The notes under the pieces were generated by a model. That model was given only the letters and a program-made list of their open reading frames with translations, was not told the origin of the DNA and searched no databases. 64,000 nucleotides of DNA. Source: Nitrososphaerota archaeon (GTDB lineage: Archaea; Thermoproteota; Nitrososphaeria; PSMU01). Positions 1 through 60,693 of this stretch are shown here, piece after piece. The stretch's first letter is position 1, and each line of letters opens with the position of its first letter. The stretch is taken from positions 96,001-160,000 of the forward strand of contig PSMU01000001.1 of the NCBI GenBank assembly GCA_040290255.1, in the 5' to 3' direction. Both the position numbers and the translations under genes were made by a program.

Positions 1-38
1 CCCTTACCTGTTCGCTACAAAGCCCTCGCGCATGAGAT

Positions 39-130
39 TGGTGGGGTCGGTGGGATTTGAACCCACGATCACGGGCGTTCCCGTCGATAGATCCCGAGGC
101 CCGCAGCTTACCATGCTAGCCCACGACCCC
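39..130 (-). tRNA. tRNA-Pro(CGG), 15-nt intron at 37/38 (78-92), CCA encoded
   Basis: Reverse complement GGGGTCG...CGGGC CT CGG G[ATCTATCGACGGGAA]C GCCCG...TTCAAAT...CGACCCC A CCA; BHB CTCG GG^A / CGGG AA^C. Confidence 0.93.
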
Positions 131-180
131 GAGAATCATGTAAGAGATAAGGTTAAAACTTTTCCTCCTATGATGCTGCC

Positions 181-270
181 GCCCCGGTAGCTCAGGAGGT
201 TAGAGCGCGGCACTGGTAATGCCGAGAGGTATGGCCCGGCAAGTCGCGGGTTCGAATCCCGCCCGGGGCT
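181..270 (+). tRNA. tRNA-Thr(GGT), 16-nt non-canonical intron at 45/46 (227-242)
   Basis: GCCCCGG acceptor; CGGCA CT GGT AA TGCCG anticodon arm; variable loop AG[AGGTATGGCCCGGCAA]GTC; relaxed BHB GCCG AG^A / CGGC AA^G. Confidence 0.9.
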
Positions 271-291
271 GGAATTGTCTCCTTGGCCACG

Positions 292-307
292 GAAAAAGCT
301 TATTAAG
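292..307 (+). promoter_or_regulatory. BRE/TATA promoter of rRNA operon
   Basis: GAAAAAGC-TTATTAAG upstream of the structured pre-rRNA leader. Confidence 0.55.
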
Positions 308-438
308 CTGGCCGATGTTCAACGTGATTGCACGTCGGCGGCTCAGGGCCAAGTGAGGATGCAATCCTAGCGGTGAGGCTCTGACCTCCAGACGTGCAGA
401 CAATAATGCAGGCATAACCCGTGAGGGTTATGTCCAAG

Positions 439-2009
<1,571 letters not shown>

Positions 2010-25732: not shown

Positions 25733-25819
25733 TCTCTGGGCTTGAAACTCGCGGCAATTAAAAGCTTTCACTAATGTTTTTATTGCACGCATTGACGCTG
25801 GGCTCGGAGGTGATATGAC

Positions 25820-26234
25820 CTGAGCAAACAGGCCGAACTGGGAGAGGTTAAGGAGGGCAGCTACATGGTAATCGAAGGAGAGCCTTGCAGGATCGTGGAA
25901 GTAGAGAAGAGCAAGCCTGGAAAGTAGCGATATGCTACCCAGGTAGCATGGCTCTGCGAAGGTCAGGGTTGTAGGAATAGGCTTGTTTACCGGCTCGAAG
26001 AGAAGCTATCTAGGACCTGCCGACTCATTAGTAGAAATACCGCTGATCGATAAGCGCATCGCGCAGGTACTCGCGCTCCTGCCTGACAGGGTACAGTTGA
26101 TGGATTTGGAAACTTACGAGGTGTTCGAATCAGATATGCCACAGGAGGAAGGGCTTCGCGGTAAGCTTGAGCAAGGCAGGCAGGTGGAGTATTGGGTGGT
26201 AGGCGGGCGAAGGAAATTAATGAAGCTGCGTTAA
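25820..26234 (+). CDS. eif5a: Translation factor aIF5A, join(25820..25922,25945..26234), 130 aa, CTG start, BHB intron
   Basis: Spliced product [51 protein letters not shown]...; SD GGAGGTGA at 25806-25813. Confidence 0.93.
25923..25944 (+). other. 22-nt BHB mRNA intron in aIF5A
   Basis: GC CTGG AA^A GTAGC GATAT GCTAC CCAG GT^A GC; removal gives GGA A|AG CAT. Confidence 0.9.
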
Positions 26235-31652: not shown

Positions 31653-31748
31653 CGCCGGGGGAGGGACTCGAACCCTCACGGGCCGTGAGGCCCACCGGCT
31701 ATCATGTAGGATCTCGAGGCCGGCGCGTTACCACTCCGCCACCCCGGC
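31653..31748 (-). tRNA. tRNA-Ser(CGA), 12-nt intron at 37/38 (31701-31712)
   Basis: CCGGC CT CGA G[ATCCTACATGAT]A GCCGG; long variable arm. Confidence 0.9.
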
Positions 31749-31851
31749 GATAGCTTTACTTGCTCCGGGCCCATTTTAATGTTTATACCCGTGGGCTAAG
31801 CGTCAATATAGACCGATTCATAACCCATAGGACGATACTAGTGAGCTGAGA

Positions 31852-31961
31852 TGCGGGGGGTGGGATTTGAACCCACGAACCCCTTAGGGGAGCGGATCCC
31901 CCGGCGAACTTGAGTCTCGGCCTTATGACCGCCGCCGTTAACCGGGCTTGGCTACCCCCGC
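31852..31961 (-). tRNA. tRNA-Leu(CAA), two introns: 30/31 (31916-31928) and 37/38 (31898-31908)
   Basis: GCGG[TCATAAGGCCGAG]A CT CAA G[TTCGCCGGGGG]A TCCGC; long variable arm. Confidence 0.87.
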
Positions 31962-34245: not shown

Positions 34246-34343
34246 TGCGGGGGGTGGGATTTGAACCCACGAACCCCTTAAGGGACGAGGTCTCTCAATA
34301 TATCCTAAGCCTCGCGCCTTTGACCAGGCTCGGCCACCCCCGC
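34246..34343 (-). tRNA. tRNA-Leu(TAG), 12-nt intron at 37/38 (34292-34303)
   Basis: CGAGG CT TAG G[ATATATTGAGAG]A CCTCG. Confidence 0.92.
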
Positions 34344-35226: not shown

Positions 35227-35318
35227 TGGCGGGCCCGGTGGGATTCGAACCCACGACCTACGGGTCTCTCTACAGCGGTCTAAGAGCCCGCCGCTCTACC
35301 GTGCTGAGCTACGGGCCC
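35227..35318 (-). tRNA. tRNA-Lys(CTT), 15-nt intron at 37/38 (35266-35280), CCA encoded
   Basis: GCGGG CT CTT A[GACCGCTGTAGAGAG]A CCCGT; perfect BHB. Confidence 0.94.
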
Positions 35319-43193: not shown

Positions 43194-44346
43194 TCACTTA
43201 TCCGCCTCGACAGGCCAATAATTTAGTGACCAGAAGGATACGGGAACGTCGGCAAGGCGATACCCTTCTATAACCTTCGGTATGGCCGGCAGGTTCCTAA
43301 AGGAGGGAGTCGAGATGCGCACTCTGTAAGGATGAGGACCTCCGTCGGAGATTATATGGTAGGACATGCAGCCTCGGGCGGCCTCGGTTCTGGCGTAGGC
43401 TTCCCCCACCCTGCCTCGTAACTGCCCTCTTAGGGGCAGCCTGACAGGGCCCGGCCTCATCTTCCTGATCGCCTGTTTGATGATCTTTAGGGACTCCAAC
43501 ATCTCGTAGAAGCATACCCAACAGCGCGCCCATGAATCCCCCTCCTGCATAACTGGAACCGAAAACTCGAAGGTATCATAGAGCGAGTAGGGCTCGTCTA
43601 TCCTTACATCCGATTTAACGCCGGAGGCCCTAAGGGTTGGGCCTACGCATCCTAGGGCTATGGCATCCGCCTTGCTCAGGAAGCCCACGTCCATAGTCCT
43701 TTTTTCGAAAACAGGGTTTTCAAAGTAGATTTTCTTGTACTCTTGGAGCCTGCCCTCGAAGTACTCGCAGACTTTAAGCACCTTATCTTCCCAGCTGGGA
43801 GGCACATCACACCTTACCCCACCAGGCACATAGTAGGCAAAGGTAACCCTAGCGCCTGAGGCCATGGCAGCCAAGTCGATAAAGTACTCGCGATCCCCGG
43901 TTGCCCACATGAACATCGTGCTGTGACCCGTAAATATGCCCTGTATGGCAAGCCAGTACAAGTGGCTGATAATCCTGTTAAATTCCGCCATTATCACGCG
44001 CAGGTATTGCGCGCGTTCCGGCACCTTCTCGCTCAACCCTAGCAATTCTTCTACCGCCAGCACATAAGGAAACAATATGCCACATGAGTCTAAGATTACA
44101 GGCCGTTCAAGGTGAGGTATATTCTGAATATAGGTCCTATACTCGCACATTTTCTCCTCGCCCCGGTGGACGTACCCTGGGTCGGGGATACACTTGATGA
44201 CGATATCGCCATCTAAGGTCACTATTAGCCTAAAGTGCCCACTTCCCGGATGTTCCCCCCTACTAGGTCTGGGGACCTATTGAGACAGTGAGCACGTTAT
44301 CTGCTACTCGCTCCTCTGTGTAGACATGTTTGAGTGCCGACTCCAA
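43194..44346 (-). CDS. nuoD: NADH-quinone oxidoreductase subunit D, complement(join(43194..44252,44269..44346)), about 378 aa, BHB intron (TTG start; GTG at 44355 possible)
   Basis: Spliced ...TVSIGPQHPGSGHFRLIVTLDGD...PGYVHRGEEK...EAARG..; no NiFe CxxC motifs. Confidence 0.9.
44253..44268 (-). other. 16-nt BHB mRNA intron in nuoD
   Basis: GGT CCCC AG^A CCT AGT AGG GGGG AA^C ATC; removal gives CCC CAG|CAT CCG. Confidence 0.87.
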
Positions 44347-44468
44347 GAGGACCACCGCATCACGCTTAAGGCTACGAGCTTTTAAACCTGCCCCTGCCGT
44401 TCTTGCGGCCCAGCTATTAGGCGAGAAAAAGCCTTTTTACCAAGCGAAGCCTTGGCCTGGATAACAGC

Positions 44469-60605: not shown

Positions 60606-60693
60606 GGGGCCGTCGTCCAGCTTGGTTAGGATGCCAGCCTGAACTCTTGGCTAAGGGCGCTGGTGGTCCTGGGTTCAAATCCCAGCGGCCCCA
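60606..60693 (+). tRNA. tRNA-Pro(GGG), 13-nt intron inside the anticodon at 34/35 (60642-60654)
   Basis: CCAGC CT G[AACTCTTGGCTAA]GG GC GCTGG; BHB AGCC TG^A / GGCT AA^G. Confidence 0.88.

Follow-up and report, generated by a model that had tools for sequence, protein, structure and literature searches.

Very small introns that are removed from messenger RNAs without a spliceosome are found in eukaryotes in XBP1 and HAC1, where IRE1 cuts at two stem-loops as part of a regulated stress switch and ligation of the exons by RtcB leaves the message in a changed reading frame. In archaea, the closest described case is the bulge-helix-bulge (BHB) intron in the cbf5 pre-mRNA of Desulfurococcales and Sulfolobales, which is short (16-44 bp), lies in a protein gene, breaks a codon where the protein is conserved and critical for function, occurs in some lineages and not in others, is tied to a two-subunit endonuclease and causes its host gene to be mis-annotated by gene callers (PMC2738675; PMC10485636). 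In Haloferax volcanii, the archaeal splicing endonuclease also cuts the HVO_1309 mRNA at a BHB, and RNA-seq has detected the spliced product; a 2023 review counts two archaeal genes with tRNA-endonuclease-spliced mRNAs, cbf5 and HVO_1309, and expects more (PMC10485636). Here we analysed a 64-kb stretch of DNA (the window; C3 96-160 kb) from the genome of a hot-spring Nitrososphaerota archaeon (1.21 Mb, nine contigs, 91% complete), in which 16 nt at window positions 44253-44268 interrupt nuoD, the gene for subunit D of respiratory complex I. Sequence comparison, folding and gene content together make it very probable that these 16 nt are an archaeal BHB intron in the coding sequence of the only nuoD of this genome.

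The nuoD insert shares with the cbf5 intron its shortness, its position in a codon-level break of a conserved functional site, its patchy presence among lineages, the two-subunit endonuclease predicted for its host and the truncated gene calls that it provokes. Unlike cbf5, which encodes an RNA-modifying enzyme, nuoD encodes a respiratory subunit; its host organism belongs to the class Nitrososphaeria, and splicing of nuoD is predicted from sequence. The BHB site of HVO_1309 reportedly lies in the 5' untranslated region, and its enzyme is the homodimer of a euryarchaeon, whereas the nuoD intron would lie within the coding sequence and shift the frame. The proposed splicing of nuoD resembles that of XBP1 and HAC1 in the small mRNA intron, the ligation by RtcB and the change of frame, and differs in the enzyme that cuts and in the stress switch, regulation of nuoD being not known. 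The mechanism is the same as that of the cbf5 introns; the host gene, its functional class and the archaeal class are new. A literature search returned no report of a BHB intron in nuoD or in the gene for the translation factor aIF5A, which is also considered below.

The interruption of nuoD and its bulge-helix-bulge

On the minus strand, a 30-codon open reading frame (ORF; 44263-44355, GTG start) ends in ...TVSIGPQT followed by TAG TAG, and a 352-codon frame running to 43194 and beginning HPGSGHFRLIVTLDGD... lies 16 bases further on, in the +1 frame. Excision of 44253-44268 joins the 87 nt of 44269-44355 to 43194-44252 in one frame of 381 aa, with ...TVSIGPQ on one side of the junction and HPGSGHFR... 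on the other. The interruption falls between the GPQ codons and the HP codons, and the GPQHP-type N-terminal motif of NuoD, a loop that we take to lie at the quinone site of complex I, is intact only once the 16 nt are removed. The NuoD frame matched Pfam PF00346 (E 9.5e-80) and NCBIfam NF004739 (400.1 bits, cut-off 360, from profile position 9), as well as the Nqo4 chain of Thermus, 2fug_4 (E 2.5e-72). The alignment with 2fug_4 begins at residue 4 of exon 2 and carries a one-residue offset in the HPxxH stretch, which leaves the quinone-binding histidine unassigned. The locus comprises the following features.

44269-44355, minus strand: nuoD exon 1, 29 codons from GTG 44355 (26 from TTG 44346), ending ...TVSIGPQ and aligning to the N-termini of relatives
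44253-44268, minus strand: predicted nuoD intron of 16 nt, ACCTAGTAGGGGGGAA, with two in-frame TAG right after the 5' cut
43194-44252, minus strand: nuoD exon 2, 352 codons and a stop, beginning HPGSGHFR, with PF00346 and NF004739
44380-44386, minus strand: TTTAAAA, a TATA-like box whose centre lies 28 nt before GTG 44355, read from the sequence
44249-44277, minus strand: BHB motif with outer, central and inner helices and two 3-nt bulges
44277-44275 with 44251-44249, minus strand: outer helix GGT/ATC, 3 bp with one G-U (sequence and relaxed scan)
44274-44271 with 44258-44255, minus strand: central helix CCCC/GGGG, four G-C pairs (sequence and fold)
44270-44268, minus strand: bulge 1, AG^A, predicted cut after 44269 (sequence)
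44267-44265 with 44261-44259, minus strand: inner helix CCT/AGG, 3 bp, closing the loop AGT at 44264-44262 (sequence and fold)
44254-44252, minus strand: bulge 2, AA^C, predicted cut after 44253 (sequence)
44235-44295, minus strand: longer exon-exon stem (44295-44282 with 44247-44235) bearing the BHB at its tip (ViennaRNA fold)

The original prediction, made from the letters of the window, had proposed this intron. The minus-strand letters that it gave for 44249-44277 (GGT CCCC AGA CCT-AGT-AGG GGGG AAC ATC) are exactly those of the sequence; the canonical cuts AG^A and AA^C do remove the 16 nt, join CAG to CAT and restore GPQHP in a 381-aa NuoD; and the unspliced frame does run into a stop, as CAG ACC TAG TAG in the 30-aa ORF. 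Its count of 26 codons for exon 1 fits a start at TTG 44346, but a start at GTG 44355 gives 29.

The nuoD motif has the strict hBHBh' form, in which two opposed 3-nt bulges flank a 4-bp central helix with helices on both sides. The rule that cuts fall after the second base of each 3-nt bulge was checked on two tRNAs of the window, tRNA-Pro(CGG) at 42-130 and tRNA-Lys(CTT), from which it removed 15 nt, giving the canonical 37/38 junction in an anticodon loop of the normal seven bases. The intron of tRNA-Pro(CGG) has the same architecture as that of nuoD, down to a tiny inner hairpin, with 15 instead of 16 nt and bulges GG^A and AA^C instead of AG^A and AA^C; in nuoD, the intron sits in a messenger and codons form the outer helix. 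The AAC bulge had been described as common to nuoD, tRNA-Pro(CGG) and the 23S rRNA of this genome; it recurs in tRNA-Pro(CGG), but AA^C was absent for 23S rRNA among 49 motif hits. By eye, 15 of 26 positions are alike between the nuoD and tRNA-Pro introns, a resemblance that serves as a lead only.

A looser form of the motif (3 bp/4 bp/3 bp, G-U allowed) at length 16 occurs 119 times on both strands of the 1.21 Mb, and since this corresponds to ~5e-5 per site and length, the coincidence of a BHB with the single deletion that repairs the gene is not a matter of chance. In a very relaxed scan of 44180-44340, the nuoD BHB was the sole match with an outer helix of at least 3 bp. The minimum-energy fold from ViennaRNA contains the inner hairpin and the central helix at the tip of the longer exon-exon stem, and the fold of 76 nt at the insert had a z of -2.24, with 4 of 200 shuffles as stable.

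In the pathway that we propose, transcription of nuoD would be driven by a promoter immediately before exon 1. Judged by the archaeal promoter consensus and spacing, TTTAAAA is a putative promoter element that would have the transcript begin with exon 1 itself or only slightly before it, and so yield a leaderless mRNA. In the pre-mRNA, the CCCC at the end of exon 1 would pair with the GGGG in the 3' part of the intron, leaving the two 3-nt bulges; a splicing endonuclease, apparently of two different subunits, would cut between the second and third bases of each bulge (AG^A, AA^C), and RtcB would ligate the exons into an mRNA for the complete 381-aa NuoD with GPQHP restored. The spliced product would yield a junction-spanning tryptic peptide, ...SIGPQHPGSGHFR, and on unspliced RNA translation would stop at TAG TAG after 30 codons.

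A single nuoD was found in the 91%-complete genome. The genes nuoB, nuoC and nuoH and those for four antiporter-type subunits (nuoL/M/N) are intact at C3:235-246 kb, ~95 kb from nuoD on the same contig. A nuoI-like frame sits between nuoB and nuoC; these three are on one strand, and nuoH and nuoL/M/N are on the other. In L033, the closest relative (75% identity), nuoD directly follows nuoC. The interrupted nuoD has moved away from the operon, its insert along with it, and is still the sole copy. Because the only nuoD is interrupted by a BHB-shaped insert, the cell most likely must splice nuoD mRNA to respire.

A different insert in a relative and uninterrupted genes elsewhere

The insert is present in independent DNA assemblies. 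Gap-free contigs bridge it in three of four DNA runs (X1, X2 and X6), which come from three different studies; X1 is possibly the source of this assembly, and X4, whose listed contig (44236-44414) has 17 letters on one side of the insert, was excluded from the bridging count. No indel was reported in any of the four runs, nor any contig without the insert, at word depths up to ~1250. X6 represents another strain, with 25 differences over 1227 nt; among the 22 that are listed, none falls in 44225-44300, and the 20 inside the joined coding sequence comprise 12 synonymous and 8 nonsynonymous changes.

We read homologous loci at 198 places (29 + 80 + 89, not de-duplicated), the genomes of relatives used for comparison sharing only the class with this organism. 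nuoD was uninterrupted at 197 of the 198, the exception being L033. Sequence of the exon 1 type, ...TVSIGPQHPGSGHF..., was unbroken at 29/29 loci from 40 relatives, at 79/80 metagenome loci and at 89/89 further loci. In a scan of 400 genomes of the class, all frames were open among the 150 matches listed (of 330), with at least 369 aa against 360 here. Both the conservation of exon 1 and the presence of the insert in DNA, on which the original prediction had staked its reading, are borne out by these data.

In L033, an insert of 30 nt (1461-1490) occupies nearly the same place. It is unrelated in sequence to that of our genome and starts one base earlier, within the Gln codon; its length is a multiple of three, which keeps it in frame, yet it contains a single TGA. 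Its BHB is of a relaxed form, with a central helix ACCG/CGGT, bulges CA^A and AG^G, an inner helix of 5+3 bp and an outer helix of 1 bp, and cutting by the same rule restores GPQHP. The L033 fold had a z of -4.2, with 0 of 200 shuffles as stable, and its exon-exon stem was stronger than those of 101/101 uninterrupted controls (108 loci, of which 7 were dropped for a missing stricter motif or the presence of N). Each of the two introns has a 3' part complementary to the exon bases of its own gene. This gene, L033 and P0003 formed one clade in a quick tree (SH-aLRT 97), and therefore a single gain before their split is the simplest history.

We compared the codons of the two interrupted genes in the joined frame. 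Over the last 20 codons of exon 1, 4 are identical, 10 synonymous and 6 replaced; over the 11 codons from the 3' cut to the internal GTG, the figures are 4, 6 and 1, and over the next 49 codons 15, 27 and 7. Judged by these substitutions, exon 1 and the 11 codons before the internal GTG evolve as coding sequence in the joined frame. A shortened product starting at GTG 44222, which had been named at the outset as the outcome that would undo the intron, is disfavoured by the same 11 codons, with their six synonymous changes and one replacement.

Public gene calls give a parallel record. In the 90% protein cluster of this genome, 7/7 members are truncated calls of 342 or 318 aa, and as 4 of the 7 are only ~89-90% identical, the break is probably common to further relatives. 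Truncated calls in the L033-like cluster are recorded on 28 contigs (11, 5, 5, 5, 1, 1), alongside two fragments and one full-length call, P0132, of 380 aa on a contig of 4,630 nt. P0132 equals the predicted spliced product of L033, with 1461-1490 removed, at 380/380 residues. A sequence that lacks exactly these 30 nt exists in nature, whether the contig of P0132 is RNA or DNA. All public nuoD calls of this clade that we examined are truncated save P0132, and complex I of these genomes is therefore scored wrongly by automatic annotation and in metabolic reconstruction.

Splicing weighed against other explanations

Several observations weigh against an intron. Cleavage and ligation themselves we infer from DNA, fold, frame, conservation and enzyme genes. 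At nuoD, the outer helix has only 3 bp including one G-U, and at L033 1 bp; taken by itself, the nuoD motif (46 nt) folds no more stably than its shuffled versions (z 0.40), and the exon-exon stem of nuoD is unremarkable, 15/101 uninterrupted homologues pairing equally well. In L033, the unconstrained fold favours another register, CCGC/GCGG, which is out of frame. The covariation rests on two insert-bearing DNA sequences, and P0132 may come from an intron-free DNA allele instead of RNA.

Recoding during translation would dispense with splicing altogether: a +1 shift on CCC_C would give SIGP-RPSRGE-HPGSG in this genome, and TGA would be read through in L033. The frame of exon 2 is indeed open back through the insert, as VPRPSRGEHP, the L033 insert has a length divisible by three and holds just one TGA, and archaeal cbf5 introns themselves were once mistaken for frameshifts (PMC2738675). 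Two sister lineages would, however, need two different mechanisms with no shared signal, the inserts being unrelated in sequence and length; unrelated peptides would be inserted inside a motif that is unbroken in 197/198 loci; the CCC is followed by CAG, not by a stop; and P0132 lacks the ten extra residues. We regard recoding as very unlikely.

That nuoD is dead or dying, its insert an inactivating lesion never removed, would fit the callers, which yield truncated products only, 342 or 318 aa in 7/7 members of the 90% cluster. This is the only nuoD of a genome in which the other complex I genes found are intact, and its 381 codons hold no further stop or shift. Substitutions are mostly synonymous both against strain X6 and against L033, and the interruption has been retained in lineages 25% apart in protein, all of which makes decay very unlikely.

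An insertion gained and lost in the DNA itself, with cells of the uninterrupted allele supplying the function, takes its support from P0132, an L033-lineage sequence on one 4,630-nt contig that encodes 380 aa without the 30 nt. In that same lineage, truncated calls on 28 contigs stand against this one full form, and in our genome the runs examined gave no insert-free contig at word depth to ~1250; neither the BHB shape nor the exact boundaries would be expected of a DNA element, and we give this explanation as little credence as decay. Least probable is a shortened NuoD made without splicing from GTG 44222, a 342-aa ORF that does exist and is what callers report, as it would lack GPQHPGSGHFRLI, found in every homologue read, would leave the 11 codons before the GTG and the 29 of exon 1 evolving as coding sequence in the joined frame, and would have its TATA-like box before exon 1 and not before 44222. 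All four alternatives together retain a small share of the probability, and each explains less than a BHB intron does.

Splicing enzymes, a second interrupted gene and the wider meaning

The genome encodes enzymes for the proposed BHB splicing. There are two EndA-family genes of ~183 aa each (C4:317215-317763 and C3:57059-57604), both with PF01974 and PF02778, and one RtcB gene (within C3:69831-71138; PF01139, E 1.7e-170). A Tyr/His/Lys pattern, which we take to be the catalytic one, is kept in one EndA copy and not in the other; the splicing endonuclease would, on these sequences, be a heterotetramer built of two different subunits. We assume that Caldiarchaeum belongs to the same class as this organism. 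It is reported to have tRNA introns of non-canonical type and an endonuclease that is a heterotetramer (PMC3082918). In this genome, cbf5, the classic host of BHB mRNA introns, is uninterrupted.

At 88-110 nt, the majority of the tRNA genes of the window must contain inserts (42-130, 31653-31961, 34246-34343, 35230-35318 and 60606-60693). Apart from tRNA-Pro(CGG) and tRNA-Lys(CTT), with their 15-nt introns at 37/38, several had doubtful anticodons in ARAGORN, and the BHB scan gave no clean canonical intron in them, which suggests introns at non-canonical positions in several tRNAs of the window.

A second protein gene of the window is split in a similar manner.

25814-26234, plus strand: aIF5A gene, split by a 22-nt BHB insert at 25923-25944

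The insert breaks up the codon for the Lys of SKPG-K-HG, a residue that is presumably the hypusine site. Its central helix is CTGG/CCAG, its inner helix has 5-6 bp and its fold a z of -3.3. Against Pfam IF5A-like_N, the gene matches profile positions 6-35 before the insert and 37-60 after it, and the frame is uninterrupted, at 131-205 aa, in 38 relatives with a match, against 95 aa here. The original prediction counted nuoD as the second BHB mRNA intron, and its first is probably this one in aIF5A. At its 5' end, the frame has no ATG, GTG or TTG upstream of the conserved N-terminal part (25811-25826, plus strand), and the ATG close by, at 25815, is off this frame by one base and leads to a TGA; a CTG start, an error of one base in the assembly or another recoding could account for the missing start.

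BHB frame-merging scans restricted to the window recovered nuoD and aIF5A. They also gave a candidate in the S10 gene, which is uninterrupted, so that this candidate was false. Over the whole genome, a frame-merging test on 3068 BHB-like hits was uninformative, random sites passing alike (score >45: 11 observed against 11.8 expected), and it was rejected because it mostly detects the boundaries of neighbouring genes.

Two further observations concern the surroundings of these genes. G+C is 0.52-0.56 over C3 ~60-170 kb against 0.62-0.69 in the remaining contig, and the low-G+C stretch contains the rRNA operon, many tRNAs, nuoD and aIF5A; for nuoD itself, the value is 0.53 against 0.63 in its L033 homologue. 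Regional composition, a foreign origin or a chimeric join could each account for this. In L033, a NuoI-like frame upstream of nuoC (3-449, plus strand) has a stretch ending ...NQVVHNC before a ferredoxin-type CxxCxxC, and this ending looks, in sequence, like the C-terminal end of an intein.

If the reading of nuoD as interrupted by a BHB intron is true, a frame-shifting intron of this kind in a core respiratory gene would carry mRNA splicing beyond RNA-related genes and beyond Crenarchaeota, an extension that the parallel aIF5A intron in the same genome strengthens. The nuoD BHB offers a defined substrate for the specificity of a two-subunit endonuclease, and this genome and L033 form a natural experiment on changes in intron length, sequence and position. 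More tentatively, and with the balance somewhat against it, the clade may routinely use its tRNA-splicing machinery on mRNAs: at least two essential genes in one 64-kb window, nuoD and aIF5A, would need it, and the nuoD intron would have been inherited through 25% protein divergence, with 16 against 30 nt, slid by one base, and may be presence-polymorphic. If so, mRNA introns would here be inherited and evolve in a prokaryotic lineage, placed where its proteins are most conserved, and splicing could gate respiration and translation.
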